The position numbers and the translations under genes are program-made. A model generated the notes under the pieces. The model ran no database searches and was not told the DNA's origin. It worked only from the letters and a program-made list of their open reading frames with translations. 64,000 nucleotides of DNA from an uncultured Gammaproteobacteria bacterium (lineage in GTDB: Bacteria; Patescibacteriota; Patescibacteriia; Magasanikbacterales; GWA2-37-8): the NCBI GenBank assembly GCA_964465205.1, contig CAYXJO010000002.1, positions 26,350 through 90,349 of the forward strand. The letters run 5' to 3'. This document shows positions 24,001-47,991 of this stretch, one piece after another. Every line of letters begins with the position of its first letter. The first letter of the stretch is position 1.

Positions 24001-27000
24001 CTGCGAATCCGTTACGTATTGGGTCAACCGTAACTAGCAGTATTTTGGTAGTAAATAGCAGTGGCCATGTTGGTATTGGTACTTCTTCCCCACGGTATCA
24101 ATTACACATTGTTAATTCTGCGCCGCGCGAACAGGCGGTTTATTATCAAAATCTTCATAATAGTTACAGAAGCATGATTGTGGCAGATGCGTCCACCGAT
24201 GGATTGGGGGCCAATGGGTCTAGAATAGATTTTCGTGCTCACCCCACCGGATATAGTGAGACGTTATTTGGCACAACTATGGCAGGCAAATCTGCACTCA
24301 TATCCATATCCACTAATGGACTTATTGTTGGGGAATATAATGATCAGCCGGTTATTTTTGGCACTAACAATAAAGAGAGAATGAGGATTGCTAATACCGG
24401 CAATGTCGGTATTAGTACCACCTCCCCCAACTATCCTCTCACCGTAAACGGCGATATTAACATCACCAGCTCTACCGGTGGCATTCCAGCTTTACGTATC
24501 AACGGCACTGATATGAGTCAGTACTTCATTACCTCTGCTGGCACTGCTGGACAGATATGGCAATCTGACGGCACTGGTGCGGGAGAGTGGGTGAATACTT
24601 CTACACTAGGTATTGTCGGCGGCGGTATTACTTCCGAGTCTGATCCGATCTTCATGGCCGCCTCTTCTAGCTTTGCTTCTTCTACTCACAACCACGATGG
24701 TACCTACGAACCTGCCTTCTCTATTCTTACTATCATCAAAGGTGGTACCGGCACCTCTACTATCTCATCCAATGTTGGTTCGTTACTATATAGTGATGGT
24801 AGTGCCTACCAATTCACCAATGCCTCTACCGATAACTACGTACTCATGTCTCAAGGTGGTGTACCGACGTGGGTGACGACTTCGACGCTGGGTTTGGTGG
24901 CTGGGATTGGTTCGGGCACAGTTAATATTGGCACTGCTGGCCAGATCGCCTACTATGCCACCGATGGTGCTGCTGTGAGTGGCACATCTAGTTTGTTTGT
25001 AGCTGCGAATGGGTATGTGGGTATCGGTACTACTACACCTCGTTATTCTGTTGACGCGGGCACTGGTACTATCAGTGCTCTACGATTCCGTGTAGATAGT
25101 AAAGCTATGGCCTATTGGGATACGGCTGCTCCTAATTTACCGTCTGCTTATCCCAGTGGCACTTTAGTACTTGGGTTTGCCGGTACTGTTGGCAGTGCAG
25201 CATTTCCGAGCAGGTTAAATGCATATTCTACTTCCTATTTAGAAACGTATTACAATTCCGGCAATCCATATTTTGCGTTTATTGGTGGTAATGTGGGTGT
25301 AGGTACTACTTCTCCGTCCGCATCTCTATCTGTTATTGCTGCCACATCCACCGGTAGTATTTTCCAAGTCGGCACCACTACAGCGCAAAATATTTTAACA
25401 GTATTGGCGAATGGCCATGTTGGTATAGGTAGCTCTACCCCGAACTCTCCTTTGGTTTTGCAATATTCCAAATCAGGTTTTGGGCTCACCATTGCCAATT
25501 CGTTAGCGACAAATTATTCTTTGATGAGATTTTTGGGGACTGGGCGTTCTTACACTATTGGCGTTGGTAACGCCAGTGAGACTAGTTATGGTCTGGCCAA
25601 TAAGTGGTTTGTGTTTGATGCTACAAGTAATACAGCGCGCATGGTGGTTGATTCTGTTGGCAATATTGGTATTGGCACTACCACCCCAGATGCATCTTTG
25701 TCTATTTACACCACAACGGGTGCTGCTGGGATCATTTTGTCAGACTTTAATTCAAGTGAAGGTGGTGCATTAAGTATATATGATGGTGCCACTAGCGGAT
25801 TTTTGCCTACCATTAAAGGGCAATCAAATGGGGTTGGTGGGTATGGTGTGGCACTCTATGGCGTTATTCCACCAGCAAATGATGTAGTGAATGTCGGTGG
25901 TGGTGGAGTATTAATTAGAGCCCTTAGATCAGATAATACTGTTCTACAAAATGCCAATGTACTTAGTGTCAATAACTACACCACCAATTTGATGACTGTA
26001 ATGGCGAATGGTTATGTTGGTATTGGTACTACCACACCCGGATCCTTGTTGGATATTTATGGTAATAGTACCAATGCAGTTATGCGTATTTTGAGTGGAA
26101 ATACAAGCAATTATTCTTATATCACGATGGGTAGGGCTTCAGTCGAAATGTCTATGGGTGTAGCGGCTGCCGCGGATAATGGATTAGTGGGTACTGTAGC
26201 TGGTGATGTTTGGTTGAAGAATGTAAATACTGCCAATAAATTGTCTATAGGTATTGGGTCTGGCGCGCCTGCAATTACAGTGGCCAGTAGTAGCTATATA
26301 GGTATTGGCACTACCACTCCCAATTATCGCTTCACAATTGCGGGTACGTTTACCGGCAACGATCGTACAGCTATTAATTTAGCAAATTACAGTACCAATA
26401 GCGACGCTGCCATATCTATTAGATTCCAGTCCGGCACTTCTACTGGTTTTATAGGAGCGTATGATGCAGCTTATGCTTCTTTGCCGGGTTTAGGGAATAC
26501 TTTTGGTGTCAATGCTGTGGGTAACGCTACTACTTCATTATTCTTGATGTCTGGTAGCGCTTCTGGTGTGATGCGTTTTTATACTGGTGGTAATAACGAA
26601 AGAATGCGAATTGATTCTGCTGGCAATGTCGGTATTGGCACCACTACGCCAGCTTATAAATTCCAAGTGTATATTGACGCTAGTAACGAAGGTCATGTTA
26701 GCGCTACTGGTGATTGGGCGCGTACGTCCGATTCGCGGCTCAAGAAAAATGTTAATACGCTTACAAGTGCCTTGCAGATTATTGGCGCGTTACGTCCGAT
26801 ATCTTATGATCCGATTACCGGATCAAATACCGCGTCCGGTACCAGTTTGGGCTTCCTGGCTCAAGAAGTGGAGCCGCTTGTGCCGCAAGCCGTAGACACT
26901 AATTCAATAACAGGATACAAGTCAGTAGCTTATGGTCAGTTTATTCCGATCTTAACTGCCGCCATCAAAGAACAGCAAGCACAAATTGATGCGCTTACCA

Positions 27001-33730: not shown

Positions 33731-33926
33731 TTGACAGAATAGTAATTGAATGGTAATTTGTATATACAGCACTTGACCCGTTATCAGCGGGGAGCCGAAA
33801 GAAGAAATTCGCTTTTTGGCGAATATTAGACCTTTCCGGGGTGGCCCGTTATCGCCGCAATTAAGTAAAAGCACAAGATGGTACCGCCCTACACGGGCTC
33901 TTGGCACACAAAAAGTGTGTTTTTTT
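33731..33926 (+). promoter_or_regulatory. Candidate T-box leader (tRNA-Ile-responsive) upstream of ileS: promoter, AUC specifier candidates, T-box antiterminator-like element AAGA-UGGUACC-GCCC..GGGC-UCUU, then hairpin + U7
   Basis: TTGACA at 33731. Canonical 7-nt bulge UGGUACC at 33879-33885, with UGGU complementary to the ACCA end of tRNA-Ile. Flanking helices aaga/ucuu and gccc/gggc. cacac/gtgtg + TTTTTTT at 33904-33926. Located in front of ileS. Confidence 0.4.
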
Positions 33927-33941
33927 ATTATAAATCTAAGT

Positions 33942-36857
33942 ATGTATAATTCCAATGAAAACGAGCTTGAAATACTTAAATATTGGGACGACCATCAATG
34001 TTTTGAAAAATCGGTAAATGAACGACCGGAAAACAAGCCGTATCTTTTTTATGACGGTCCGCCATTCGCCACTGGATTGCCGCATTATGGTCACATTGTT
34101 GCGTCTTTGGAAAAAGATGTAGTACCACGTTATTTTACTATGCGCGGTTTTCGTGTAGAGCGTAAATGGGGGTGGGACTGTCACGGTTTGCCGATTGAAA
34201 ATATTATTGAAAAAGATCTCAACTTGACCAGTAAAAAAGATATCGAAAATTATGGCATAGATAAATTTAACGAAGCGTGTCGTGCCACTGTGTTGAAGTA
34301 TGCGTCTGAATGGAAAAAGACTATCAAACGTATGGGGAGGTGGGTGGATATGGAGCATGATTACAAGACCATGGATATTGATTATATGGAAAGCGTATGG
34401 TGGGTATTTCGTCAGCTTTGGGACAAAAACTTGCTCTACAAAGGTCACAAAGCCATGCATATTTGTCCACGTTGCGTAACACCGCTTTCCAATTTTGAGG
34501 TGACTCAAGGATATAAAGATGTCAAAGATATTTCGGTAACGGTGAAATTCAAATTAAAAAATGTTAAAGAAAAATTGAATCTGACTGACGAAGTTTATGT
34601 TTTGGCTTGGACTACCACCCCATGGACCTTGCCAGGTAATGTACTCTTGGCTGTCGGTAGGGGCATGGATTATGCAGCGGTAGCAATTGAGGGAGAGTCC
34701 GGTGTATATTTATTGGCACACGAAAGACTCGAAGCGGTATTAAAAAATAAAAATTATAAAATTATAGAGAATTTTAGTGGTGATCAGTTGATTGGCTTAG
34801 ATTATGAGCCCCTGTTTTCATATTTTGCCGATACCGCCAAAGCTTTTCGGGTGGTAGATGGCACTGCCTTTGTTACCACAGTAGATGGCACTGGCGTGGT
34901 TCATATTGCGCCGGCATTTGGAGAAGAAGACTATCAAGTGGGTAAACGTGAAGGCTTGCCGCTCGTCCAACATGTGGGTATGGATGGTCGTTTTGTAGAA
35001 GAGGTGCTGGATTTTGCCGGTCAGGAGGTAAAACCAACCGAACAGCCAACAGCTACTGATGTAGAGGTTATCAAATGGCTTGATGCTAATAATAAATTGT
35101 TTAGCAAAGAGGGGTTTATTCATAGCTATCCACATTGTTGGCGCTGTGATGCACCGCTTTTGAATTATGCGACTAATTGTTGGTTTGTAAAAGTGACCGA
35201 GATGAAAGAAGAACTGTTAGCCAATAATCAAAAAATTAATTGGGTACCGGAGCATATCAAAGATGGCCGTTTTGGCCAGTGGCTCGAAGGTGCGCGTGAT
35301 TGGGCAATATCACGTAATCGTTTTTGGGGCACACCGCTACCGGTGTGGGAGAGCGCAGATGGAGATGTTATTTGTGTAGGTAGTGTGCAAGAGTTGGAAG
35401 AATTGACTGGTGCCAAAGTGACCGATCTTCACAAACACAAAATTGATAATTTAGAAATTAATAAAAATGGCAAAGTGTACCGCCGTATTCCGGAAGTATT
35501 GGACTGCTGGTTTGAATCAGGAAGTATGCCGTATGGTCAAATGCACTATCCGTTTGAAAATAAAACCAAATTTGAAGCCAGCTTCCCGGCAGATTTCATT
35601 GCCGAAGCGCAGGATCAAACTCGTGGTTGGTTTTATACTTTGCACGTATTGGCCACTGCTCTAACTCGTGCTCCCCATTCGTCAATTCCAGTGGACACTA
35701 GCACCGCCGCTTTCAAAAATGTAATTGTACACGGTATTGTGTTGGCCGAAGATGGCAAGAAAATGTCCAAACGTCTCAAAAACTATCCAGAACCGGATAT
35801 TATCTTGGAGAAGTATGGGGCTGATGCTATGAGGTATTATCTCATAAGCTCGCCAGTGCTAGACGGAGAGAATCTCAATTTTTCCGAAGCGAATGTGCGT
35901 GAAGTTTACACCAAACTTATTAACACTCTTTGGAATGTTGTTGAGTTTTACAAAATGTATGCTGGAGATAAAAACAGTGCCGAAGTTACCAGCGAACATG
36001 TGCTCGACAAATGGATTTTGGCCAAGTTGAAAGAGTTGATCAAAGATGTTTCTGCTGGATTTGAGAGCTACCAACTCACTCGCGCCTCGCGTCCAATTTT
36101 GGATTTTGTTACCGAGTTATCGCAATGGTATGTGCGTCGCAGTCGTGATCGTTTCAAGGGTGATGACACGCAAGACAAAGCGGCGGCCGTAGCTACTCTA
36201 CGCGAAGTGTTATTAACATTATCCAAAGTGATGGCCCCATTTACTCCATTTATGGCTGAAAAAATTTATCAAGAAATGGGTGGCACGAGCGAAAGCGTGC
36301 ATTTGGAAATGTGGCCAGAAATCGCGACGTATGAAGAACACGTGCTTACTGATATGGTACGTGCTCGTAAAATTGTCGAGCTTGGTTTGGCGGCGCGCGC
36401 TGAGCAGGGGATTAAAATTCGTCAACCACTACAGCATGTTTATTATCAGGCGGAAAAACTATCCCCAGGTTTAGAGGATGTTATTGCCGACGAGCTTAAT
36501 GTAAAGCATGTTGTGCATACTACGGAAGTTACAGAGCAAGCGAACCGTGTAATCAAGGAAGACGCTATTTTGAAAGTTGGTTTGGATGTTGTTGTATCCG
36601 AAGAATTAAAAAAAGAAGGTTTGGCTCGCGAAATTGTGCGCACTATTAATCAGATGCGTAAAAATGCGAAACTAACTGTCAATGATGTAGTGAGTGTAGT
36701 TTATGAAACCGAAGACGAGTTGCTCGCCTCGGTGTTTGTGGAATACAGTGCGGAAATATCCAAGAGTGTGTTGGCCAAAGAAATAAAATCTGGCAAAGTT
36801 TCAGGTGAAGCTGTGGAACTCGATGGTCGCACTGTAAAAATCGAAGTAAAAAAATAA
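33942..36857 (+). CDS. ileS: Isoleucine--tRNA ligase (long, type-2-like form)
   Basis: HIGH-like GLPHYGHIVAS and KMSKRLKNYPEP motifs, with editing domain. Homology begins at MYNSNENELEILKYW (33942); the tracked ORF starts earlier at 33816. Confidence 0.95.
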   Translation: MYNSNENELEILKYWDDHQCFEKSVNERPENKPYLFYDGPPFATGLPHYGHIVASLEKDVVPRYFTMRGFRVERKWGWDCHGLPIENIIEKDLNLTSKKDIENYGIDKFNEACRATVLKYASEWKKTIKRMGRWVDMEHDYKTMDIDYMESVWWVFRQLWDKNLLYKGHKAMHICPRCVTPLSNFEVTQGYKDVKDISVTVKFKLKNVKEKLNLTDEVYVLAWTTTPWTLPGNVLLAVGRGMDYAAVAIEGESGVYLLAHERLEAVLKNKNYKIIENFSGDQLIGLDYEPLFSYFADTAKAFRVVDGTAFVTTVDGTGVVHIAPAFGEEDYQVGKREGLPLVQHVGMDGRFVEEVLDFAGQEVKPTEQPTATDVEVIKWLDANNKLFSKEGFIHSYPHCWRCDAPLLNYATNCWFVKVTEMKEELLANNQKINWVPEHIKDGRFGQWLEGARDWAISRNRFWGTPLPVWESADGDVICVGSVQELEELTGAKVTDLHKHKIDNLEINKNGKVYRRIPEVLDCWFESGSMPYGQMHYPFENKTKFEASFPADFIAEAQDQTRGWFYTLHVLATALTRAPHSSIPVDTSTAAFKNVIVHGIVLAEDGKKMSKRLKNYPEPDIILEKYGADAMRYYLISSPVLDGENLNFSEANVREVYTKLINTLWNVVEFYKMYAGDKNSAEVTSEHVLDKWILAKLKELIKDVSAGFESYQLTRASRPILDFVTELSQWYVRRSRDRFKGDDTQDKAAAVATLREVLLTLSKVMAPFTPFMAEKIYQEMGGTSESVHLEMWPEIATYEEHVLTDMVRARKIVELGLAARAEQGIKIRQPLQHVYYQAEKLSPGLEDVIADELNVKHVVHTTEVTEQANRVIKEDAILKVGLDVVVSEELKKEGLAREIVRTINQMRKNAKLTVNDVVSVVYETEDELLASVFVEYSAEISKSVLAKEIKSGKVSGEAVELDGRTVKIEVKK

Positions 36858-36980: not shown

Positions 36981-38354
36981 TTATTTCGGCAGCATCTTCT
37001 TGAAACTAGCCAACTCCGCATGATAAATCTTCGTCATCTTATTATTAAACTCTTCTGGCAAAGTTTCAGCATCTTTAGTAGTGGTAAAATGTTTGACATA
37101 TTCCGACCACGGATGCAGGTGTTTGAGTTTATTGCGGGTAAACAGTTTCGCATAAAGCGATTGGTAATTTTTTTTGTGCAACGCGTAGAAAGAAAAATCC
37201 AATTCGTGTGCCGACCCAGTAGCGAATTCTGTTCCAAAGTAATGGTCAAACATGTGGGGAGTACGTAGTAGATTTTTTTGGTAGCCTATTTTTGCCGGGT
37301 CTACATCAGCTACTGCAGCAAACAGGAACATGCGTGCGCATTTGTAACATTTGTGGCACCACTGCGACCCTTTTGGCAACGGAAGTTCCGCGCTACATGA
37401 AAATTGGTACTTGCCATATTCTGGGTAGCGATGATGCAAGATGTAGAAAATATTTATTTCATCTAATGGTTGAAATGTACTACGTACCCCGCATTGGTTA
37501 TTGGTGAGTAGGCGTACAATATTATTTTGATTGTCGGTGTTTTCTGGTGTCTGGTCACACGACAGCCATTCTTTCCAACCGTTGTTCCATTCGTATTCGT
37601 TGTTGGAATATTCACTGCCAAATAAAATGTATTTGGCGCCGTGTTTTAGAGCAAACGGTACCATCATTATGGCCAACACGGTAGTTTGTGTGCCCCAGCC
37701 TAGTTCGGTACGCGCAATACCAAAAGCTTTGCCGTAGCGGAATAATCCGGTGTCGTTTTGGAGAAAATAATATTTGAGGCCGAATTCTTTACTAAATTCT
37801 TTTAGTTTTTTCAATTTGTATGCCTGTTCATATGGTTGGGAAGGCTCCTGGCAGTATACCAAAATTGGTTCTATACCAACTTCGCGACAAAGAGCGACAG
37901 TGGTCAGGCTTTCTTTGCCAAAGGTAAATGGCACAATCGCCACTGGCTTTTTATTTTTTATAGTTTTGATTTCTTTTGGATCGGGGAAGGTAGAGTGCCC
38001 GCCCGGTTTGTAGACGGTTTCTAAATTATAGAATTGTTGTAAATAATGGAGTGTCGGTTTGTTATCGCCGGTCGCACAGTTTATTAAGTCTTGAATTTGA
38101 TTTTTGTATAATAGATTCTCTGTAATGGGCGGGTTGGTGTTATATATTACTTTTTTCTTTTTTAAAGCCAACGGCACCACTTGAGTGGTGGCGTAAGTGA
38201 GATTCTCCAGCAAAGTTTGCTTTACGGAATTGGGAATACCACGCCAGACTTCTGTAGGGTATTCAATATCGTAATGTTTTTTTTGAATATCAATACGGAC
38301 GCCGCGATTGGTCACATGGGCATCTATATATAAGACGTTTTTGTCAGAAGACAT
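36981..38354 (-). CDS. QueC-like / PP-loop-like adenine nucleotide alpha-hydrolase superfamily protein with C-terminal C-x12-C-x2-C-x2-C zinc motif and N-terminal extension (457 aa)
   Basis: Degenerate PP-loop VAIVPFTFGKESLTTVAL and Cys cluster CSAELPLPKGSQWCHKCYKC resembling the QueC zinc site. Start overlaps the stop of the upstream ATP-grasp gene. Confidence 0.45.
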   Translation of the reverse strand: MSSDKNVLYIDAHVTNRGVRIDIQKKHYDIEYPTEVWRGIPNSVKQTLLENLTYATTQVVPLALKKKKVIYNTNPPITENLLYKNQIQDLINCATGDNKPTLHYLQQFYNLETVYKPGGHSTFPDPKEIKTIKNKKPVAIVPFTFGKESLTTVALCREVGIEPILVYCQEPSQPYEQAYKLKKLKEFSKEFGLKYYFLQNDTGLFRYGKAFGIARTELGWGTQTTVLAIMMVPFALKHGAKYILFGSEYSNNEYEWNNGWKEWLSCDQTPENTDNQNNIVRLLTNNQCGVRSTFQPLDEINIFYILHHRYPEYGKYQFSCSAELPLPKGSQWCHKCYKCARMFLFAAVADVDPAKIGYQKNLLRTPHMFDHYFGTEFATGSAHELDFSFYALHKKNYQSLYAKLFTRNKLKHLHPWSEYVKHFTTTKDAETLPEEFNNKMTKIYHAELASFKKMLPK

Positions 38355-38356
38355 AA

Positions 38357-40768
38357 TTATTTAAGTGAGTATTTACTTTTGTTGTTTTTGTAACGAGTAA
38401 TTGCCAGCCAAATGATTTCTTCCACCAAGTCGGCATATTCCATGTTAATGATTTTTGCCGATGACACAAAATTACTATCAAAATCAATAGATGGGTGTGG
38501 GTTAATTTCGATTACAAATGGATTGCCTTCTTTGTCCACGCGAAATTCTACCCGGCCGTAGTCTTTGCAACCCATGATGCGATAGGTATCTAGAGCCACT
38601 TCGGTAATTAATGATTCTAGATTTTTTGAAATATTTTTGGGCGGACGTTGAATAGTAACATTGTTGTAATTATAATTTTGATTTTCTGTCCATTTCATTT
38701 CATAAGGGAAAAATGGCCAATTGCCCGCCGGCATTTTGTCAAAAATGTAGCGCGATAGCGGCAATACACGCAGATCTTGGTCTGTATTGCCCAGTATGCA
38801 AACATCGTATTCCTCACCTTCAATGAATTCTTCTACTAGCGCTGGACCGCCGTATTGATCGAATATTTCCTTTATTTGGTTGCGTAGTTGTTCTTGGTTT
38901 ACTACTATCGATTTGGCGGTAATGCCATTGCTGCCATCTTGGCTAGCTGGTTTGACAATTAGAGGGAAACGCAGATCCTCATCTATTTCTTCATCTGGCG
39001 TGGTAGCGTAATCCCATTTTGGTATTGGTATTTCGTGAAATTCAAGTATTTTTTTCATTTTTATTTTATCCAGACACATGCCCAGAGTCGAGTAGTTGGA
39101 TCCGGTAAATGGTATTTGCAGTATTTCAAGCATGGCCGCCATATGAGGTTCGTAGGTGCTAGAGCTGTTTAACATGTCGCATAGGTTGAACACCACGTCA
39201 ACGTCACTTTCGCGTAGTTGGTTAAAAGCTTTGATATGATCGGAGAAGTCGTAGTAAGATATTTTGTAGCCGCGTTGTTGCAGCATGGCGCCAAATTGCT
39301 GGATTTCTTCGGCACTGTATTGATCCGGGTCCAGATTGTTATCCATACCTTCGACCGCGATACCAATATGTAGTGAGCGTTTATTCTCGGCTGTTACGCG
39401 TTTTACTTTTTCCAAACGTGCGGCTTTGAGTAGAGCTTTTTTGTTTAATACCGCCGCGGACAGGCGAGTTTTGCGCGAAGTTTTACCAAGGGAAGATTGT
39501 TGATCAAATTTAGCCACTTTGTATTTAATGTAGTTCAAAGCGTCACGCAGATTATCTTGCGCATCTAGAAAATTTTCTCCTGATACTGTAAGCCACCCCA
39601 AACTGTCGTATCCTTCTGGCGGCAATAATACCGGCTCACCCACGTCTTTATATAAATGTATTTCTTCAAAATATTTTTTACGTCGTAATTCGTCATCAAC
39701 ATTTAATTCCACCAATAATCCCGACGATTCAGGGTGGAGGTCCCAGCCTACAATATACTTTTTTGGTCGATCGGGTTTACGAATTTTAATATATTGTCCA
39801 GTGGCGATTTTTACTGCGTTTTCGATTAGGTCCAGGTCCCAAGAAGCGCGATTGTATGAGTAAACGTAATCTCCGCCCATACGCAAATTGAGTTCGATTG
39901 GCACTGGGCCTTGCGGGGTAGATTTGGCTTCATAATGCACTAGACAGTTTTCGATGCCGAATTTTTCCAGGGTCTCTTCCGCCATGTCAATCAGAGCCTC
40001 TTGATTGTGTTCGGGTAGGGTCGAGGGGATAGATTGCCCTTTGTCGAGAAAGAATTGATCCCAAGTTTTATTGAAGTTATCGGATATGGTGTAGAACTTT
40101 ACTTTACCATTTTGTAATACCACATCAATATCCACTTCGTCTCCATCTAGAAATTCTTCAACAAAAATATCCAATCCATCAGACAGGGCAGATTCGGTTT
40201 CAGAAGATATGTTTTTCTTTATGTAATTGTAAGTATTAGTTAGTTCTTCTTTGTTTTCCACACGCACCACATAGGCACTGCTGGCGCCATAAGCCGGTTT
40301 AATTACCAGTGGGAAATTAAAACTACTAGCGATCATTTCTAAATCTTCGCTATTTTTAGCCATTTTGTGGCGGGGAGCGCGAATGCCGTGCTTTTCGCAC
40401 AGCTCGCGGAATAGATATTTATTACGAACTTGTTTGGCAACATTATATGGTACGCCAATAAAATTAAATCGGTCTGTTATTTTGGAAGTAAGTAGTACGT
40501 CATCTTCCCAAAAGGTGAGCGCACCGTCAATTTTTTTGTTTTGATCATTTTTAATATAGGCATCAACCGCCTTGATAGCTTCGCTATGGTTGTAAGTGTC
40601 GGCGATAATCCACTCGTCAATATATGGTTGCGCCCAATTTTTTTCTTTGTTGAGTACAATAATATACAGACCCAATTTTTTTAGGCGCTGTAGTATGAAT
40701 TTCTTTTTTGGGGAGCCGGTGTTAACCAGCAAAATTACCTTCCCGTTAAGTTCGGAGTTGTTTTCCAT
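38357..40768 (-). CDS. Tandem ATP-grasp domain ligase (803 aa; two Ddl/RimK-like ATP-grasp modules)
   Basis: Module 1 FPLVIKPAYGASSAYVVRV...FVEEFLDGDEVDIDVV. Module 2 RFPLIVKPASQDGSNGITAK...LVEEFIEGEEYDVCILG...GRVEFRVDKEGNPFVIEINPHPS. Confidence 0.75.
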   Translation of the reverse strand: MENNSELNGKVILLVNTGSPKKKFILQRLKKLGLYIIVLNKEKNWAQPYIDEWIIADTYNHSEAIKAVDAYIKNDQNKKIDGALTFWEDDVLLTSKITDRFNFIGVPYNVAKQVRNKYLFRELCEKHGIRAPRHKMAKNSEDLEMIASSFNFPLVIKPAYGASSAYVVRVENKEELTNTYNYIKKNISSETESALSDGLDIFVEEFLDGDEVDIDVVLQNGKVKFYTISDNFNKTWDQFFLDKGQSIPSTLPEHNQEALIDMAEETLEKFGIENCLVHYEAKSTPQGPVPIELNLRMGGDYVYSYNRASWDLDLIENAVKIATGQYIKIRKPDRPKKYIVGWDLHPESSGLLVELNVDDELRRKKYFEEIHLYKDVGEPVLLPPEGYDSLGWLTVSGENFLDAQDNLRDALNYIKYKVAKFDQQSSLGKTSRKTRLSAAVLNKKALLKAARLEKVKRVTAENKRSLHIGIAVEGMDNNLDPDQYSAEEIQQFGAMLQQRGYKISYYDFSDHIKAFNQLRESDVDVVFNLCDMLNSSSTYEPHMAAMLEILQIPFTGSNYSTLGMCLDKIKMKKILEFHEIPIPKWDYATTPDEEIDEDLRFPLIVKPASQDGSNGITAKSIVVNQEQLRNQIKEIFDQYGGPALVEEFIEGEEYDVCILGNTDQDLRVLPLSRYIFDKMPAGNWPFFPYEMKWTENQNYNYNNVTIQRPPKNISKNLESLITEVALDTYRIMGCKDYGRVEFRVDKEGNPFVIEINPHPSIDFDSNFVSSAKIINMEYADLVEEIIWLAITRYKNNKSKYSLK

Positions 40769-40880
40769 GTGTAATCGTGTCTATGAGAATATTATAATAG
40801 ATGAATTTATTTGTCAACAATTTTTTGAGCAAAATTGACAGTTCGTAAGTGGTCTAGTAAGATTAAGGAGATAAATTTTT

Positions 40881-41765
40881 ATGGAGATCAAAATCGAGAC
40901 TGACAAAAAACGTTGCGAAGAAATTTGGCGGGCATTATCGCCCCAGTTTTATTTGTATGATGACTGGGATTTTAGAAAATTATTTGCCGATGCGTACGGA
41001 TTTCCGCTCTATTTTATAGTTGGCTACGAACAAGATATGCCTGTGGCTTTGTTGCCCCTCGAGTTTGATACCGAGAAACGTTATTATGAATATTGGGGCG
41101 GTTTTTTTATGGAATTTAATCGGGTATTTGTACGCCCCGGTGCAAATGTAGATATCCAACTTCTTTATGATGCCGTGCCCAAACCCATGAAGCTAGTTTG
41201 CGCCGAATCTAGCGAAAATAAAGTAAATGGTTTTGTGGTAGATGGCTTTACTTATACTCTGGATATTCAAAATATGCAGGGCGTGGAAGACTATTTGTTG
41301 CGTGAATTTTCTGCCAAACGTCGCAAGAACATTCGCAATACTGTAGATAAAGCGTTGGTGTCCGGATTAGTAACCGGCAAAGGTGATTGGCGTGATCTGA
41401 GCAAATTATTCCAATACAATATTGATCGGTTTGCAGATGAATCTTCTTTTCATGATCAACACGAACAAGAAATTTTTAAACAATTTGCTTCTCTATCGCT
41501 ACCTTGGGAGATTGTCGTGCTGCGGCACGGCGAAGAAGTGGTAGCGGTATCCATTGGGTGCCTGTATAAAGATCGTTATCAGTATTTGGCGGTCGGGTCT
41601 GACTTTGCTCGTGCTTCTGGCGCGGGGACGGTGTTGTGGCTTGAACATGTAACTCGCGCCATCCAATATGGTGCCAAATTTATCGATGCCGGCAGCCATG
41701 ATTGTGGCTGGAAAGAGCTTTGGCATCTTACCAAAATACCCTTGTTTGACAGGGTGATATTGTAA
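40881..41765 (+). CDS. FemAB/CelD-type GNAT-fold protein (Acetyltransf_6 / BioF2-like family)
   Basis: 294 aa. C-terminal FIDAGSHDCGWKELW motif is typical of the CelD/FemAB-like GNAT family. Divergently oriented from the ATP-grasp operon. Confidence 0.55.
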   Translation: MEIKIETDKKRCEEIWRALSPQFYLYDDWDFRKLFADAYGFPLYFIVGYEQDMPVALLPLEFDTEKRYYEYWGGFFMEFNRVFVRPGANVDIQLLYDAVPKPMKLVCAESSENKVNGFVVDGFTYTLDIQNMQGVEDYLLREFSAKRRKNIRNTVDKALVSGLVTGKGDWRDLSKLFQYNIDRFADESSFHDQHEQEIFKQFASLSLPWEIVVLRHGEEVVAVSIGCLYKDRYQYLAVGSDFARASGAGTVLWLEHVTRAIQYGAKFIDAGSHDCGWKELWHLTKIPLFDRVIL

Positions 41766-41851
41766 TTTTGGGGTTTGACTTTTGGTGTTGTAGGTATTAC
41801 GATAGAATAATCCAATTGATTAAATTAGAGGTATTATTTGTTGGTTAAATT

Positions 41852-43687
41852 ATGATTAAATTTGCTGAAGGTTTTCGGGTTGATGCAGCCAATCGTCTGA
41901 GAGTAGATAATGTTAAGGAATTGCCAAATTTTATTTTGGCCGGTCGTGATATCCGCGCGGCGTTGCGTGAAAAAACACGCGAGGTCGGGTTACCGGATTT
42001 ACCGCACAGCATACATAGTGCGGAGGATTTTTCTGTTCAGGCGCGTGAACAGGTGGGGCGCTATTGGGTAGAAACCGTAGGTGAACAAGCGGCTAGACAG
42101 GCGACAGAGTGGGCCGGTGAGATTGGTGATGAAGATGAGTACCAGGAGTTAAAATCAAATTTGGTTGACCCTGCGAAATTAGAAGAATGTTTGCAAAGTC
42201 GCAAATTAGCTGCGTTTGAACAATTACGTGTTGTAAATCCAGATGCTTGGAAAACATTATTAATTTATTCTCACGAACGACAGCTAGCATCGGTTGAACT
42301 CGCGCGTCATTGGATAAAAACAGCCGATGACGAATATTTACAACCAACTGGTCTAAGTAAAAAAGAATGGACAGTGTTCTTGTATTTCGCCGGTATTTTA
42401 GGCAAATACTTTGATCAAGCTTATATCAAACAGATGGAGATGGCGGATCTAGACGGAGGTTCTGAAGAGAGTGAGTTATCTGAATTATCGGGCGGAGAAT
42501 CTTTGTATGATTTTGAAGTAGGGGATACTAAAGAAGTAAAAACCTATAAAGAAATGTTCACTTTGGAATGGCCGAAAATAGTAGATCGTATGAATTTTTT
42601 GGCGGATAAAGTCGAGCAAATGGTAAAAAGTAACGACTTGCCAGCAGATAAATATGCAAATTTAGCTGGTTTTATTCGTCAGGCAGCAGAAGCTTATGGT
42701 TCAGAAGACAAAGATCCCGCTGTACTGGATAAAATATGGCAGAATTTATATGAGGCTGGTACTGAACTAATCAAAGATGGTTGCCCAATAGTATTTGTGC
42801 CACAAGGAAGTGCCGAAGTGACAGGCGACGCCGGTAAGGTGGATGTAGAAATGCGTTTAGCTCTCCACACAAATAAAGAGAAAGAGTTGGAATATCAGTT
42901 TGATGGTGTGCATCACAATGCTCAAATGATGGTGAATGAGCGCATTAACTATTTGAATGATAAAAATTTTAAAGTTCCGGATGTGGTTTTGAGTGTCCAG
43001 CCGTTTGCTTTTGGTCCAAATTTACATGCTGTCACTGAAGGTGAAGCGGGCGAAAAGTTTATGCTGGTGAATGTTGACGCCGTCAAAGAGGCGGCGGGTA
43101 GACAATACAAAATATTACAAAAAGTTTTTTCTGTAGACGATATTGATACCAATAAATTTGAACGAGCAGTATTAAGCGATACTGTGAATCACGAATTATC
43201 ACATAATATAATGAGCACTGACGATAAGGCAGTGAAAAAGAGAATTGGTTATAGCAGTAATGTCGGAATTTTAGATGAGATAAAAGCTGACACATTGGGG
43301 ATCGGATTGTCTGTGAATACAACCAGTGATGAAGAGGGTGATAGATATGTATTATTATCCAAAATTAGCACTGTACTGACGTCAACCATAGGCAAAACTG
43401 GTATTATGGAGCGAGATCCGCATTATTTTGCTGGAGCCGCAATAATTGCTGAGCTACTGGATCAAGGAATAATTGTACAGCGAGAAAAACAATTTGTCAT
43501 TACAGATGTTCGTAAAGGTTTGTCTGTCCTTGCCGATTTGGGTAATACTGTTTTACAAACTATGTATTGTAATGAACAAGCCACACCCAAAGACACTGCT
43601 AAATATATCAGTGGATTAAAGAAAAAAATAAAAAATTCCGGTTTTAATAATTTTAAAAATTTAATTGATTTAGAATATGTTAGTTAA
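41852..43687 (+). CDS. Hypothetical 611-aa protein with HExxH motif (VNHELSHN); possible zinc-dependent hydrolase
   Basis: ORF. Single HELSH motif. No other recognisable domain. Confidence 0.45.
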   Translation: MIKFAEGFRVDAANRLRVDNVKELPNFILAGRDIRAALREKTREVGLPDLPHSIHSAEDFSVQAREQVGRYWVETVGEQAARQATEWAGEIGDEDEYQELKSNLVDPAKLEECLQSRKLAAFEQLRVVNPDAWKTLLIYSHERQLASVELARHWIKTADDEYLQPTGLSKKEWTVFLYFAGILGKYFDQAYIKQMEMADLDGGSEESELSELSGGESLYDFEVGDTKEVKTYKEMFTLEWPKIVDRMNFLADKVEQMVKSNDLPADKYANLAGFIRQAAEAYGSEDKDPAVLDKIWQNLYEAGTELIKDGCPIVFVPQGSAEVTGDAGKVDVEMRLALHTNKEKELEYQFDGVHHNAQMMVNERINYLNDKNFKVPDVVLSVQPFAFGPNLHAVTEGEAGEKFMLVNVDAVKEAAGRQYKILQKVFSVDDIDTNKFERAVLSDTVNHELSHNIMSTDDKAVKKRIGYSSNVGILDEIKADTLGIGLSVNTTSDEEGDRYVLLSKISTVLTSTIGKTGIMERDPHYFAGAAIIAELLDQGIIVQREKQFVITDVRKGLSVLADLGNTVLQTMYCNEQATPKDTAKYISGLKKKIKNSGFNNFKNLIDLEYVS

Positions 43688-44639
43688 ACAAATATTTGCA
43701 TTGGGATTAAAGTTGGGTATGGCTGCCGATCCGCGCGGTACCAAAGGTGTAAGCTCGTATTTAGCAAATGTAAAAAAAGAATTTGATAATTTGAAGCCTA
43801 AGGATAAACCGTATTTTGATGAGGAGCGCCTAAACAACCCCTATGTGGACAGTCGAGTGCATGTGGATGATGGTAAGACCGAAGTTAAACGTGTTTTGAC
43901 TGGTATTGATATTGGCGATGGCGAAATAATGCTGGCGTCACAGTTGGGCGAGCGCAATAAAAAAATTGACTTGGTGATTGCACACCATCCCATTGGTCGG
44001 GGTTTGGCCGATTTGCATGGAGTGATGGATATGACGGTAACTGTTTGGGAAAAAATGGGCGTGCCGGTGCATGTCGCCGAAAAAATTATGGAAGAGCGCG
44101 TGCGCGAGGTGGGGCGTGGCGTACATCCAGCCAATCATTATCGCCTCATCAACATGGCCGAACTTCTCAAAGTAAATTTGATCAATACCCATACCATTAC
44201 GGATAATTTGGTGAATAATTTTTTGCAAGAATTTCTAACGAAGCGCGCACCCCACACGATTGGTGATTTGGTAGATTGTCTGCTCGAAATTCCGGAATAT
44301 AGTGAAGCCAAAAAACGCGGCGCTGGTCCCAGTTTGTTTGCTGGCAGCCCCAAACACCGTGTGGGTAAATGGCTACTCGAAATGACCGGTGGCACCAATC
44401 CGAGTGATAAAGTGTATAAAGAGCTCTCTAATTACGGCATTTCCACTATTATCGGCATGCACATGAAAGATGGCGCGCGCGATATTGCCAATGAACATCA
44501 TATGAATGTGGTAATTGCCGGGCATATGGCTTCGGATTCGCTCGGCATGAATTTATTTTTGGACGAGCTCGAGAAAAAAGGTATTGAGATTGTGCCGTGC
44601 AGCGGTCTTATTCGTGTGAATAGAAATAAGAAAAAATAA
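43677..44639 (+). CDS. Nif3-family (YqfO/YbgI, DUF34) dinuclear-metal-centre protein
   Basis: DLVIAHHP and VIAGHMASDSLG motifs. Overlaps the preceding gene by 11 nt. Confidence 0.7.
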   Translation: MLVKQIFALGLKLGMAADPRGTKGVSSYLANVKKEFDNLKPKDKPYFDEERLNNPYVDSRVHVDDGKTEVKRVLTGIDIGDGEIMLASQLGERNKKIDLVIAHHPIGRGLADLHGVMDMTVTVWEKMGVPVHVAEKIMEERVREVGRGVHPANHYRLINMAELLKVNLINTHTITDNLVNNFLQEFLTKRAPHTIGDLVDCLLEIPEYSEAKKRGAGPSLFAGSPKHRVGKWLLEMTGGTNPSDKVYKELSNYGISTIIGMHMKDGARDIANEHHMNVVIAGHMASDSLGMNLFLDELEKKGIEIVPCSGLIRVNRNKKK

Positions 44640-45534: not shown

Positions 45535-46482
45535 TTATATTGTTTTCCCCAGTAGCCAAAGAATAATCGCTTTTTGAATATGTTTGCGATTTTCCGCTTG
45601 GTCAAAAATGATGGAATTTTTATGATCAATGGCGTCGCGGGTGATCTCATAGCCGATATGGCAGGGCATGCAGTGCATGATTTTGCATTGGGGCGCGTAG
45701 TTATGAATCAATGCAGTATTCAATTGGAACGGCATAAAAGTGGATTTGCGACGTTGATATTCAGATTCGAATTCCGGCACTACTTTGCCGTCTTTGAAAA
45801 ATTCCATATCCATCCAAGTGTCTGTGTGGACGTAATCGCTGTTGGTCATTGCCTCTTTCAGGTCAGTGGTATAAGTGACCATACCAGTGTCATTAGCCAT
45901 TTTGTTTAATGCTTCGTCCACACTGGGGCCGTTGGCTTCGGGTGCGGCTATGGCCACTTTGATGCCCAACTTCGCGCAGGCTAGTTTTAGGGTATTTGAA
46001 ACGTTGTTTTCAATTCCGAGCCAGGTAATTTTTTTCACATTTTCCAACCCTCCGGAATGTTCAGACATGGTAAGAATATCCCCGAGCGCTTGGCAAGGGT
46101 GGTATTTTTCACTACAAGCGTCGATAACCGGTATTTGGCTATAAGACGCCGCTTGTTCGACATCAGCCGCCTTGAGAGCGCGCATCATGAGTACATCGCC
46201 GAAACGCATCACCGCGCGAATTTCGTCGCCAAAATCCGTGAGAGCGAATTGAGTGTTGCGCGCATCCAAATAAATTCCGTGGCCGCCCAGCTCTGTCATA
46301 CCGGCTTCAAATGACAATCTGGTGCGGGTTGAAGTTTTTTGGAACAACATGATTAGGGTTTGGTTTGGCAGTATGTCCACTGTCTCGCCGGCTTTGTATT
46401 TGGCTTTTAACCTTTGGGCAATTCCCAAAATTTCTAAAATATCTTCTCGACTTTGTTCTTTGAGCGATATAAGGTGACGCAT
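45535..46482 (-). CDS. Ornithine carbamoyltransferase family protein (STRTR...HPxQxLxD...HCxP)
   Basis: [32 protein letters not shown] and IMHCMPCH match the OTC pattern (HCLP-type rather than the HPLP of ATCase). Confidence 0.75.
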   Translation of the reverse strand: MRHLISLKEQSREDILEILGIAQRLKAKYKAGETVDILPNQTLIMLFQKTSTRTRLSFEAGMTELGGHGIYLDARNTQFALTDFGDEIRAVMRFGDVLMMRALKAADVEQAASYSQIPVIDACSEKYHPCQALGDILTMSEHSGGLENVKKITWLGIENNVSNTLKLACAKLGIKVAIAAPEANGPSVDEALNKMANDTGMVTYTTDLKEAMTNSDYVHTDTWMDMEFFKDGKVVPEFESEYQRRKSTFMPFQLNTALIHNYAPQCKIMHCMPCHIGYEITRDAIDHKNSIIFDQAENRKHIQKAIILWLLGKTI

Positions 46483-46485
46483 AAA

Positions 46486-46959
46486 TTAGATTTTATAATC
46501 TTTAATTTCATCTTGCGAATAGGTGCGTTCGCAATAATGACATTTTAATTGTACCATTTTTTCGGCCTGTACGTGAAATATGGTATTCATGGGTTCGTGA
46601 TTAGTAATGCATTTGATATTGGGACACACAATCAACTGTTCAATTGTATCTGGAATTTCCGCTTGAAATTTTTTGTATATTTCAAAGTTGCGAATAATGT
46701 TTATGGTGGCTTCGGGCGCGAGAATCGCTACGCGAGATATTTCCTCTGGGGTTAACTCGCGATTTTCCACTTTGATCAAGTCTTTAAATTTTAATTTTTT
46801 ACTGGGAAAATTTAATCCCACACTGACAATGTGGTTGTCGCTGGCCAAATTGAGGATGCGAATTATTTTGAGTGCTTGTCCGGCGGCGATGTGGTCAATA
46901 GCCGTACCGTCTTTGATGGCAAATACCTTGAACGCGCGTAGATTGTTTTGCGGTTTCAT
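46486..46959 (-). CDS. pyrI: Aspartate carbamoyltransferase regulatory subunit PyrI
   Basis: Zinc domain CPNIKCITNHEP...CHYCERTY. Size is 157 aa, immediately downstream of pyrB. Confidence 0.85.
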   Translation of the reverse strand: MKPQNNLRAFKVFAIKDGTAIDHIAAGQALKIIRILNLASDNHIVSVGLNFPSKKLKFKDLIKVENRELTPEEISRVAILAPEATINIIRNFEIYKKFQAEIPDTIEQLIVCPNIKCITNHEPMNTIFHVQAEKMVQLKCHYCERTYSQDEIKDYKI

Positions 46960-46976
46960 ATTGAGTGAGTAATTAA

Positions 46977-47903
46977 TTATGATAATTTACTAAGTACCAG
47001 TGCCAGTATTGCTTGTCGGACGAATAGGCCATTCTCGGCTTGTTCAAAATAATAGGCGTGTTTGGTTTTGTCCACGTCCGTTGATATTTCGTTTACCCGT
47101 GGCAGGGGATGAAGTATCCTCAAATTAGGCTTGGCATCACCGAGCATGTTTGTGTTTAGCACAAAGGCGTTTTTTACCCGTTCGTAATCCATCGGATCGG
47201 CAAAACGCTCTCCTTGGATGCGGGTCATGTATAGGATATCCACTTTGTTGATTACTTCTTCAATTTTTTTATGTAAAGAAAATTTAATTTTTTTAGATTT
47301 TAGTTCACTGCAGATGTGGCTAGGCATTTGCAGTACTTCGGGTGCTACCAGATATAAAGTAGTGTTAAAATGAGTGAGGGCTTGAGCAAGCGAATGCACA
47401 GTGCGACCGTATTTGAGGTCACCTACTAGCGCGATTTTGAGGCCGGTCAATTTTTTTTGTGTTTCCAAAATTGTAAATAGGTCTAAAAGGGTTTGAGTGG
47501 GGTGTTGGTTGGCGCCATCGCCGCCGTTGATGATTGGTTTATTAGTAGCTTCGGCCGCGCGGCGAGCCGCCCCCTCAATGGGGTGGCGCATGGCTATAAC
47601 ATCTACGTATTGGCCAATTATTTTGACCGCATCATATAATGATTCGCCTTTTTTGGCACTAGTGACAGCGGGATCGGCAAATCCAATCACTCGGCCGCCT
47701 AGCCGTTGCATGGCAGTCTCGAACGATAGGCGGGTGCGCGTGCTTGGTTCGAAGAAGCACGACCCCATCACTTGGCCGTCTAATAGTTTCGGCTGGTTTT
47801 TTTTCTTCAATTCACCAGCGACTTTCAAGATGTGTAGTATCTCTTCTTTGGATAGTTCCGGGATCGAGATAATGTCCCGTCCGAATAGCATTGGTTTGGG
47901 CAT
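46977..47903 (-). CDS. pyrB: Aspartate carbamoyltransferase catalytic subunit PyrB
   Basis: [26 protein letters not shown] and ILHPLPR motifs. Start taken at [13 protein letters not shown] (47903); the upstream in-frame extension overlaps the attenuator. Confidence 0.9.
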
Positions 47904-47991
47904 ATGTAAAAAAATACCGCCTCGGGGGCGGTGACTAAAAAAATAAACAAATAGAGTCTTGGTGGTCTTGGAGAAAAATGGCATTAATCAT
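47904..47991 (-). promoter_or_regulatory. pyrBI-type transcription attenuator: 18-codon leader ORF ([18 protein letters not shown]), U-rich pause tract, GC hairpin ccgcccccgaggcgg, U7, then the pyrB start
   Basis: Leader ORF 47935..47991. Hairpin 47917..47931. A-run 47908-47914 on plus strand = U7 on the mRNA. Leader stop codon abuts the hairpin. Confidence 0.5.

Follow-up and report, generated by a model that had tools for sequence, protein, structure and literature searches.

The locus lies within a window of 64,000 nucleotides, the whole stretch of DNA that was analysed, from an ultra-small bacterium of the CPR, and contains five ORFs, two on the minus strand and three on the plus strand. 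The ORFs, named P1 to P5 here, are real at the coordinates and on the strands listed below, and since each of them has many homologues, they are considered genes rather than chance ORFs.

36981-38354, minus strand: P1, 457 aa, MurL-related, putatively adenylating enzyme with a predicted QueC-like fold, core gene 2
37338-37400, minus strand: Cys4 cluster of P1, C320-x12-C333-x2-C336-x2-C339
37908-37931, minus strand: variant PP-loop of P1, PFTFGKES, residues 142-149
38357-40768, minus strand: P2, 803 aa, fused double ATP-grasp ligase, core gene 1
38360-39376, minus strand: C module of P2, aa ~465-803, Ddl-like
39449-40768, minus strand: N module of P2, aa 1-~440, L-amino-acid-ligase-like
40769-40880, no strand: spacer of 112 bp between the divergent P2 and P3 (GNAT)
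40881-41765, plus strand: P3, 294 aa, Acetyltransf_6 (FemAB/CelD-type) GNAT
41852-43687, plus strand: P4, 611 aa, predicted DPP III (M49)-like zinc peptidase
43190-43204, plus strand: HExxH motif of P4, HELSH, residues 447-451
43274-43291, plus strand: second motif of P4, DEIKAD (family consensus EELKAE)
43677-44639, plus strand: P5, 320 aa, NIF3-family protein

The conserved unit within this cluster is the P2-P1 pair (36981-40768, minus strand). The first-pass annotation described the two genes as coupled by an overlap of stop and start codons; the junction is indeed tight, but 2 nt separate the P2 stop (TAA, 38357-38359) from the P1 ATG (38352-38354). The 11-nt overlap of P4 and P5 (43677-43687) was described correctly. 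The same annotation proposed a QueC-like adenylating PP-loop protein with a C-x12-C-x2-C-x2-C site, a double ATP-grasp ligase, a FemAB/CelD-type GNAT, an HExxH protein and a Nif3 protein, and all of these calls agree with the searches described here, that of P1 at the level of the fold.

P2 consists of two modules, which are separate enzymes in the known LAL and Ddl systems and are fused here in one 800-aa chain. The N half matches the ATP-grasp_4/3 and LAL_C2 models of Pfam and NCBIfam, LAL_C2 above its cut-off, and shares the LAL fold and the LAL_C2 domain with the L-amino acid ligases BL00235 (3vot, 5e-21 in the PDB search) and BacD/YwfE (6e-12). The C half matches Pfam Dala_Dala_lig_C (7e-38) and Ddl structures in the PDB (1e-22 to 1e-11), and has the Ddl family fold. 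An active-site check, suggested by the first-pass annotation, revealed that the K, EE and E-x-N-x-R catalytic motifs are kept in both modules across 30 homologues. The Ddl-like module retains an intact ATP/Mg site, but the D-Ala-specific residues are not conserved, including the substrate triad E15, S150 and Y216 (here W), as well as G276 and L282 (G276S and L282N), and the module scores under every Ddl model cut-off (190 vs 243 bits). The loss of the D-Ala-binding residues makes annotations as "D-Ala-D-Ala ligase" doubtful. Among the matches listed, P2 homologues carry the JGI/NCBI name "D-alanine-D-alanine ligase(-like)". At least 800 homologues are found at E<=1e-30; the best 120 of these are full length with 53-76% identity, and the named organisms among them all belong to CPR lineages or unclassified bacteria.

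P1 has no match in Pfam, PF06508 (QueC) included. Its AF2 model (pLDDT 96.4) is matched in Foldseek by QatC, QueC and Cap9, with TM 0.69-0.76 on target for QueC structures, and resembles QatC in overall architecture (full-length TM about 0.43-0.45). The shared features are the Rossmann-type PP-loop ATP-pyrophosphatase fold and the C-terminal Cys4 metal site. G146, K147 and S149 of the loop and the four cysteines C320, C333, C336 and C339 are invariant in 92 homologues. In contrast to the QueC family, P1 carries S/T-F-G-K-E-S instead of SGGxDS, spaces its cysteines by x12 rather than x8, has an extra N-terminal domain of ~130 aa and a helical C-terminal domain, and lacks a deazaguanine or defence gene context; a PADLOC defence search gave no match. 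QatC, QueC and Cap9 form amides from an adenylated carboxylate (PMC13279940, PMC13329287).

The sequence searches refine the QueC-like call. P1 itself reaches the NCBIfam MurL model at E 0.038 (12.5 bits, cut-off 700), and distant members of its family reach it at up to 6e-12, over positions 130-444 of 447. MurL is matched at E<=0.01 by 32 of the 92 family members, and no second family recurs, the amidotransferase WbuX being matched in one member (5.8e-8). From sequence, P1 is a distant relative of MurL, and the P1 family is homologous to it. The score of 12.5 bits against a cut-off of 700 indicates that P1 is not a MurL orthologue, and amidation, cyclisation or ligation of the kind catalysed by QueC, Cap9 and QatC is therefore possible.

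On the plus strand, P3 matches Pfam Acetyltransf_6 (PF13480) at 6e-12 (46.3 bits, cut-off 22) and NCBIfam PEP-CTERM FemAB at 1.5e-5, far under the cut-off; a sequence search of the PDB, profile included, gave no match. A GNAT of this type adjoins the core in eight sampled loci; homologues flank the P1 operon or lie within it in L006, L027, L057 (two copies), L065, L070, L072 and L082. Its position within the operon varies among distant lineages, and L006 repeats the divergent layout seen here. Because of this recurrence, P3 is regarded as an accessory of the P2-P1 core. The spacer between P2 and P3 had been taken for a divergent promoter region. The divergent spacer stands, with TTGACA-type -35/-10-like boxes at 40835-40863 (plus) and 40817-40789 (minus), but such boxes are no commoner than in shuffled sequence, and the spacer contains no Rfam match and no credible small ORF.

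P4 and P5 stand outside the P2-P1 module. P4 has no match in Pfam or NCBIfam, Pfam M49 included. Its AF2 model (pLDDT 89.9) is matched best in Foldseek by the pentapeptide-motif DPP IIIs 6eom of Caldithrix abyssi (2.8e-10) and 5zum of Corallococcus (PMC5805324, PMC9820243), with which it shares the two-domain fold, the first motif (HELSH vs HEISH and HELMH) and the second motif EE-x-K-A-E/D. In P4, 25 residues separate these motifs, compared with about 60 in DPP III. H447, E448, H451 and E476 are conserved in the family, for which 141 representative homologues were collected, the named members all being Patescibacteria. P4 is thus predicted from its model to be a DPP III (M49)-like zinc peptidase. 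It is absent beside P1 in all other loci (~75), and its homologues elsewhere have unrelated neighbours. P5 matches Pfam DUF34_NIF3 (24.7 bits, cut-off 23.4) and the NIF3 structure 3rxy (8.5e-27). NIF3 proteins of this type are encoded close to P1 in 8 non-redundant loci, in each case adjacent to RuvA and nearly always in IleRS synteny; P5 is a lineage-syntenic neighbour, its co-occurrence with P1 being limited to one RuvA/IleRS-syntenic lineage.

The neighbourhood sample comprised ~75 loci, of which 48 non-redundant CPR, 9 DPANN and 13 Bathyarchaeota loci were counted; genes in the compared loci were called crudely, as longest ORFs by greedy choice. In 35/48 CPR loci (26 with a fused double ligase, 9 with a single one), P1 has an ATP-grasp gene on its own strand no more than two genes away; the same holds for 7/9 DPANN loci, where the partner is a stand-alone Ddl-like ligase. 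In directly adjacent pairs, the double ligase is invariably the upstream gene, and for 16 of the 20 such pairs in other genomes the junction measures -11 to +25 nt, which argues that the tight coupling is real. The adjacency, order and coupling of the pair are kept across many CPR lineages and DPANN, at many CPR loci with P1 identity of 50% or below. Conversely, three P2 homologues were sampled independently, and two of them are followed directly by P1. P2 also occurs without a neighbouring P1 in at least one case, which means that the two are not obligate partners. The Bathyarchaeota loci contain P1 with no ATP-grasp gene nearby. The arrangement of all five genes, whose conservation the first-pass annotation had suggested checking, is not conserved: a close relative (P1 81% identity) has a SAM methyltransferase where P3 and P4 stand here. 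SET-domain and SAM methyltransferases are recurrent near P1 loci.

Many CPR operons are longer and add a dipeptide-epimerase-like enolase, a DegT-like PLP protein (3e-6, profile vs PDB), a third ATP-grasp and a LysA-like decarboxylase (7e-39). An example is L020 (7587-16134), and similar loci exist. None of these extension genes, which had escaped the first-pass annotation, is present in the 64,000-nt window. The nearest match of the enolase-superfamily protein of L020-type loci is L-Ala-D/L-Glu epimerase (2.7e-53), and the protein conserves the KxK, D/E/D and K motifs together with a DxD motif, the dipeptide-epimerase signature. In dipeptide epimerases the DxD motif binds the free N-terminus, and its conservation in this partner points to small substrates. 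The PLP LysA-like decarboxylase accompanies P1 in 15/48 CPR loci and a pyruvoyl AdoMet_dc-like decarboxylase in 10/13 Bathyarchaeota loci. These are two unrelated kinds of enzyme, which suggests an amine co-substrate.

One of the closest known systems is MurD2/MurL of Xanthomonas oryzae (XOO_1320/XOO_1319), in which the gene of an ADP-forming amide ligase likewise adjoins that of a ~450-aa MurL-type enzyme (PMC5808125, PMC8788868). MurL requires ATP and Mg2+, releases AMP and works in the L to D direction only (PMC5808125, PMC8788868). MurL and P1 are of similar length (447 vs 457 aa), and their match is collinear, beginning near residue 130 and running to the C-terminus. A common logic would also be expected: an L-residue is added and the new C-terminus is then inverted from L to D in an ATP/AMP-dependent manner. 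The systems differ in that the partner of P1 is a fused LAL and Ddl-like ATP-grasp, not a Mur-family ligase, in the lack of a UDP-MurNAc context here, in the P1-family scores (12.5-45 vs 700 bits) and in the extension of many P2-P1 operons with ligase, epimerase, PLP and decarboxylase genes. MurL hosts are Xanthomonadales, Alphaproteobacteria and rare actinomycetes, while the P1 family is found in CPR, DPANN and Bathyarchaeota.

The P2-P1 pair is a conserved module that probably assembles a short peptide, the last residue of which it then modifies. The fuller reading, a co-transcribed functional unit of this kind with the divergent P3 as an optional tailoring enzyme, is given slightly under an even chance. 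The pair could alternatively serve peptidoglycan precursors by supplying D-amino-acid building blocks from L-amino acids without racemases, namely D-Glu or D-Ala-D-Ala equivalents, or a side-chain cross-bridge to which the FemAB-type GNAT adds a residue; parallels are MurD2/MurL in Xanthomonas and D-Asp ligase with AsnH in lactic acid bacteria. The MurL homology, the Ddl-like module and its database names, the presence of P3, the strong conservation of P2 in CPR lineages (best 120 homologues) and the epimerase-like and LysA-like partners, whose relatives act in murein-peptide metabolism, are consistent with such a route. It is nevertheless unlikely: none of the ~75 loci has a mur, fts, ddl, mraY or ftsW gene, or another cell-wall gene, in the 10 kb around P1, the D-Ala-binding triad is gone, P1 is far under the MurL cut-off with an ATP-grasp for a partner, and the P1 family extends to DPANN and Bathyarchaeota, in which murein synthesis is not known. 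Equally doubtful is P1 as an AMP-forming amide synthetase or amidotransferase of the QueC/Cap9/QatC or AsnB type, which would cap the P2 product or conjugate it, with ammonia, a decarboxylase-made (poly)amine or a protein terminus as the acceptor. The best structural matches are amide formers, and the WbuX match and the two kinds of decarboxylase agree with such chemistry; against it, MurL is the only recurrent family match by sequence, SGGxDS and the QueC substrate motifs are not kept, the Pfam QueC and PADLOC searches were negative, and a glutaminase partner was not seen.

Modification of a ribosomal peptide or protein terminus by the ATP-grasps, the GNAT and P1, in graspetide/microviridin or RimK style, is very improbable. 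ATP-grasp plus GNAT is the gene logic of microviridin, QatC and Cap9 modify protein N-termini, and methyltransferases recur nearby, but the P2 modules resemble ligases of free amino acids (LAL, Ddl) rather than graspetide or RimK enzymes, and the DxD motif of the epimerase-like partner implies small substrates. As the first-pass annotation had noted, no precursor-peptide ORF is seen; a relaxed search (20-aa cut-off) found none in or around the cluster, and the tight junctions leave no room for one. The outcome against which that annotation had set its proposal, five unrelated housekeeping genes without a shared pathway, describes P4 and probably P5, and the methyltransferase replacing P3 and P4 in the close relative fits it. 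For the locus as a whole it is the least probable explanation, since P2 and P1 keep their adjacency, order and coupling, and the GNAT reappears in several arrangements; for the pair itself it was rejected on the neighbourhood data across CPR and DPANN. The proposed ATP-dependent system for amino-acid or peptide ligation and modification is accordingly narrowed to the P2-P1 module with the GNAT as a recurrent partner, without P4 and P5.

Gene structure, folds, motif conservation and adjacency are directly supported for the P2-P1 module. In the preferred reading, a non-ribosomal pathway of peptide synthesis followed by terminal modification, P2 would start from free amino acids and form two amide bonds in succession, each in an ADP-forming step. 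Its L-amino-acid-ligase-type N module would make a dipeptide, and the C module, lacking the residues that hold the D-Ala ammonium and side chain, would extend it or else ligate a second acid/amine pair. The variant PP-loop of P1 would adenylate the terminal alpha-carboxylate, converting ATP to AMP and PPi, and the last residue would then be inverted from L to D, as by its relative MurL; alternatively, the acyl-adenylate would be captured by an amine in QueC style, giving an amide. We infer this order of reactions, epimerase over amidating chemistry for P1, and that the product is a peptide, as well as its destination. Elsewhere in the CPR, the dipeptide epimerase, DegT-like PLP enzyme, third ATP-grasp ligase and LysA-like decarboxylase would act next, and the end product of these extended operons would likely be a short peptide or peptidyl-amine with D-residues. 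The locus described here may represent a minimal version of this pathway, complemented by a FemAB-type acyl or aminoacyl transferase.

The five open reading frames that the first-pass annotation read as one divergent cluster, and as a system for ATP-dependent peptide ligation or modification, are all present exactly as described:

36981-38354, minus strand: P1, a 457-aa MurL-related protein with a QueC-like fold
38357-40768, minus strand: P2, an 803-aa double ATP-grasp ligase
40881-41765, plus strand: P3, a 294-aa GNAT
41852-43687, plus strand: P4, a 611-aa HExxH protein
43677-44639, plus strand: P5, a 320-aa NIF3 protein

These genes lie within CPR-like content (RpoB/C, a 3043-aa surface-type ORF, type-2 IleRS, GatCAB, and thymidylate genes), and among named genomes, a Candidatus Magasanikbacteria MAG comes nearest at this locus. 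The 3043-aa product is encoded by a single ORF (18084-27215, plus strand) with a hydrophobic N-terminal segment and is presumably a giant surface protein. An OTCase-like carbamoyltransferase, called by eye, directly adjoins pyrI and pyrB (45535-47984, minus strand) and carries the motifs STRTR, HPCQ, and HCMP instead of HCLP.

The relatives of P1 were collected by a pattern scan with one genome per species, giving 71 loci (designated L001, L020, and so on, with local coordinates) in which ORFs were called and clustered. Their hosts range over many phyla of CPR, Aenigmatarchaeota and Nanoarchaeota among the DPANN, Bathyarchaeota, and two MAGs assigned to Bdellovibrionota. A same-strand ATP-grasp gene occurs no more than two genes from P1 in 35 of the 48 non-redundant CPR loci, as a fused double ligase in 26 and a single one in nine, of which four (L008, L012, L015, L018) have been confirmed as orthologous to the LAL-like half of P2. 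When the double ligase is directly adjacent to P1, it is always located upstream, and 16 of the 20 junctions measure between -11 and +25 nt. Seven of nine DPANN loci pair P1 with a single Ddl-like ligase, which lies directly upstream in six (348-366 aa). Among three independently sampled P2 homologues, two are immediately followed by P1 and one is not. L081 shows that the ligase can exist without the MurL-like partner: its P2 homologue (7001-9493; 58% identity), located on a CPR contig of 645 kb, lacks a neighbouring P1 and precedes three small ORFs. The module is genuine and widely spread across taxa, as P2 homologues at E ≤ 1e-30 number at least 800 (the 120 best being full length, with 53-76% identity).

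The remaining genes of the cluster behave differently. P3-like GNATs are found beside or inside the operon in L006, L027, L057, L065, L070, L072, and L082, in varied gene orders. P4 is present at no P1 locus except that of the window, and the neighbours of three P4 homologues are unrelated. P5 is found near P1 only where RuvA is also shared, together with IleRS in all but one locus; its co-occurrence is lineage synteny. In a close relative, whose P1 is 81% identical, a SAM methyltransferase replaces P3 and P4 (L001-L003, a class-I enzyme at the position of the two window genes). These neighbourhoods identify P2-P1 as the conserved unit and P3 as an accessory that recurs; the arrangement of all five genes is a local one, and two of those once grouped together, P4 and P5, fall outside the unit. 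The type-2 IleRS gene (window 33816-36857, plus strand) adjoins the P1/ATP-grasp pair in 11 loci, among them L001, L006, L008, L010, L012, L015, L018, and L073, both convergently and co-directionally. This adjacency may be lineage synteny, yet it survives rearrangements. Several P1/P2 contigs of CPR content (L008, L012, L019, L020, L021, L030, L035, L053, L072) carry foreign titles, such as 'uncultured Gammaproteobacteria', 'Vicinamibacterales', and 'Pseudomonadales', and the MAGs are probably mislabelled.

The gene junctions within the cluster range from 2 to 112 nt. The overlap of 11 nt between P4 and P5 is correct, while the supposed overlap of the P2 stop and the P1 start has to be replaced by a 2-nt spacer between TAA (38357-38359) and ATG (38352-38354). 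The 112-bp divergent spacer, to which a promoter had been assigned, does contain promoter-like boxes on both strands, but the promoter and terminator scan returned matches no more frequent than expected from shuffled sequence. No riboswitch or other RNA was detected with Rfam in the 33-47 kb region of the window, and seven full-operon loci gave tRNAs only, with no riboswitch.

P2 combines two complete ATP-grasp modules in one chain. The N half contains ATP-grasp_4/3 and LAL_C2 domains, the latter (PF18603) scoring 35 bits against a cut-off of 29.4, and has BL00235 (3vot, 5e-21, residues 23-400) and BacD, both L-amino acid ligases, as its closest matches. The C half is Ddl-like (Dala_Dala_lig_C, 7e-38; Ddl structures up to 6e-22). 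Its residues were compared with E. coli DdlB in an alignment that took in 30 homologues of the fused type and 10 stand-alone ones from archaea. The ATP/Mg residues K97, K144, E180, E187, R255, E270, and N272 (DdlB numbering) are kept in the Ddl-like module, with D257 changed to E, and they are present in the window P2 and in most of the 30 homologues. The D-Ala-binding positions E15, S150, Y216, G276, and S281/L282 are occupied in the window P2 by P, G, W, S, and S/N. Across the alignment, E15 is substituted by P, I, V, or a gap, S150 by G or N, and G276 by S, L282 is variable, and Y216 is mostly W, the residue present in roughly half of the fusions and in every stand-alone form. P2 also falls below every cut-off of the Ddl models, the best score being 190 bits against 243. 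The catalytic motifs are kept in both modules, the D-Ala residues are lost, and the model scores are sub-threshold; P2 thus appears to be an active double ligase which, judged by its residues, is not a D-Ala-D-Ala ligase. The assignment of the C module as the true Ddl of the organism was rejected, as a claim of family membership, on the residue evidence. In source annotations, P2 bears one of two names, 'ATP-grasp domain-containing protein' and 'D-alanine-D-alanine ligase'. Where pipelines apply the second name to the strongly conserved 800-aa fusion, CPR cell-wall reconstructions relying on it may be wrong.

P1 is annotated in its source as 'hypothetical protein' and has no match in Pfam. With the NCBIfam MurL model, it scores 12.5 bits (E 0.038) against a cut-off of 700 bits, and the highest score in the family is 44.7 bits. 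Distant family members match the model at 1e-9 to 6.4e-12 over positions 130-444 of 447, so that homology to MurL is detectable over the catalytic and C-terminal region; matches at E ≤ 0.01 occur in 32 of 92 members, and no second family recurs. The AF2 model of P1 (pLDDT 96.4) has QatC (full length), QueC, and Cap9 as its top structural matches in Foldseek, with TM values on the target of 0.69-0.76 and probability 1.0 for QueC 2pg3 and 3bl5. The fold includes the Cys4 zinc site, whose C320, C333, C336, and C339 are invariant (spacing x12 against x8), and the variant P-loop FGKES, in which G146, K147, and S149 are likewise invariant. This motif stands in place of SGGxDS, and there is no match to PF06508; P1 is therefore QueC-like in fold, without Pfam QueC membership. 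PADLOC matched none of the five proteins to a defence system, so the QatC-like fold is no sign of a Qat system. PDB sequence searches with P1 and its profile gave nothing usable, and no MurL structure came up when the PDB was searched by sequence or by fold. Two P1 paralogues, with 26-35% identity to the window P1, occur in some CPR operons, either side by side (L004/L013 8620-11380, L017 9995-12746) or with three genes between them (L041 5072-6481 and 9971-11365), and one paralogue in L017 weakly matches Pfam QueC (0.0011, below cut-off).

P3 matches PF13480 (Acetyltransf_6) with 46.3 bits, above the cut-off of 22; its best NCBIfam match, PEP-CTERM FemAB (TIGR03019), reaches 24.3 bits against 260, and the PDB gave no FemX/FemA match to its sequence or profile. 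P4 matched no Pfam or NCBIfam family, Pfam M49 included, and a PDB sequence search with it gave nothing usable. Its homologues form 141 representative clusters, with named members all from Patescibacteria, and keep HExxH and an EELKAE-type motif (HELSH and DEIKAD in P4 itself). The model of P4 (pLDDT 89.9) most closely matches the DPP III structures of Caldithrix (6eom, 2.8e-10) and Corallococcus (5zum, 1.1e-9), both sharing its unusual pentapeptide zinc motif. P4 has the two-domain M49 (DPP III) fold and zinc motifs, but these are 25 residues apart, whereas characterised M49 enzymes have about 60. P5 belongs to NIF3/DUF34 (PF01784, 24.7 bits against 23.4; solved NIF3 3rxy, 8.5e-27, residues 57-311).

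An extended operon, exemplified by L020 7587-16134 with its overlapping junctions, is present at 13-15 of these 48 CPR loci. The additional genes are:

351 aa: enolase-superfamily protein; best model L-Ala-D/L-Glu epimerase (2.7e-53)
366 aa, L020 12423-13517: protein without Pfam or NCBIfam match; its profile finds DegT-type PLP aminotransferases (3e-6)
third ATP-grasp ligase
LysA-like PLP decarboxylase (7e-39, below cut-off)

In the 351-aa protein, KxK, the metal ligands D/E/D, the second Lys, and DxD are conserved, the last motif being typical of dipeptide epimerases. D131 and K156 are invariant in the 366-aa protein and 12 homologues (alignment A4), whose profile matches DegT/DnrJ/EryC1, and the protein probably represents an undescribed PLP-enzyme family. 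A tblastn search of the 64-kb window found no decarboxylase, dipeptide epimerase, DegT-like, or third ATP-grasp gene.

Weak GNATs and SET-domain proteins recur at CPR loci, the latter in two size classes beside or inside the P1 operons: 137-181 aa (L006 11354-11767, L025, L057, L073) and about 246 aa (L022, L025, L027 10702-11442, L053, L057). The Bathyarchaeota loci lack a nearby ATP-grasp, and in 10 of the 13 an AdoMet_dc-like pyruvoyl decarboxylase precedes P1. The conserved trio preceding P1 there (L031, L034, L036, L043, L044, L046, L048, and others) consists of a C_GCAxxG_C_C protein, this decarboxylase, and a 176-aa protein. The DPANN loci L054, L055, and L058-L061 share the order NDK, Ddl-like ATP-grasp, P1, ThiF-family E1-like protein, 'PhageMetallopep', and DUF763.

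MurL-type ATP-dependent peptide epimerases, encoded beside the ligase MurD2, have been reported from few proteobacterial and actinomycete genera (PMC5808125, PMC8788868). MurD2/MurL is the closest known system, and the P2-P1 module shares its logic of a ligase plus a MurL homologue but differs from it in score, partner type, and context. No MurD2-type Mur ligase adjoins P1, and no homologue of MurC/D/E/F, MraY, MurG, or FtsW, nor ddl, was found within 10 kb of about 75 loci. The literature search found no paper on the P1 family or the P2-P1 operon and nothing relevant on MurL, racemases, or Ddl in CPR/Patescibacteria, and the P1 family is not covered in the 2026 QueC-family survey.

The analysis shows a translational link between two intact ADP-forming ligase modules and a MurL-homologous, QueC-fold adenylating enzyme. 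In the general model, P2 would use free amino acids to build a dipeptide or tripeptide. E15 of the Ddl site normally binds the free ammonium of D-Ala1, and its loss is consistent with a first substrate that is N-acylated (peptidyl). P1 would then adenylate the terminal carboxylate and invert that residue, as MurL does after MurD2, and P3 would add or cap a residue. The fuller operons would contribute a second epimerase, a third ligation, transamination, and decarboxylation, which points to a short peptide or peptidyl-amine with D-residues. This sequence of assembly, adenylation/inversion, and tailoring is proposed tentatively, as a possibility somewhat short of probable.

A version of the model directed at peptidoglycan appears unlikely: the MurL homology would suit it, but mur, ddl, mraY, and ftsW are absent within 10 kb of any locus. 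About equally doubtful is that P1 forms an amide by chemistry of the QueC/Cap9 type, the enzymes that its fold resembles, perhaps with a decarboxylase-derived amine. The reading as a RiPP or protein-modification system is unlikely. ATP-grasp enzymes are indeed present, but a search of the spacers for a RiPP or graspetide precursor gene beside them gave no plausible ORF of at least 20 aa, in agreement with the precursor-free locus noted in the first-pass annotation. A pure chance neighbourhood is also unlikely in view of the recurrence of the P2-P1 pair.

A wider reading, which we regard as improbable, is that CPR and DPANN use a hitherto unrecognised, racemase-independent 'ligate-then-epimerise' route to D-amino-acid peptides for the envelope or to a host-directed small peptide. 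Here the ATP-grasps would join L-amino acids and the MurL-like P1 would invert the new C-terminal residue with ATP. If true, this would extend MurL-type epimerases far past the few known genera and into archaea, and metabolic reconstructions of CPR would contain many wrong calls of 'D-Ala-D-Ala ligase'. The distant MurL sister family, in a conserved operon with peptide ligases, is distributed over CPR, DPANN, and Bathyarchaeota, and it offers a new set of enzymes for the study of MurL chemistry, whose mechanism is unsolved. The module points to a small peptide from organisms otherwise having almost no biosynthesis.
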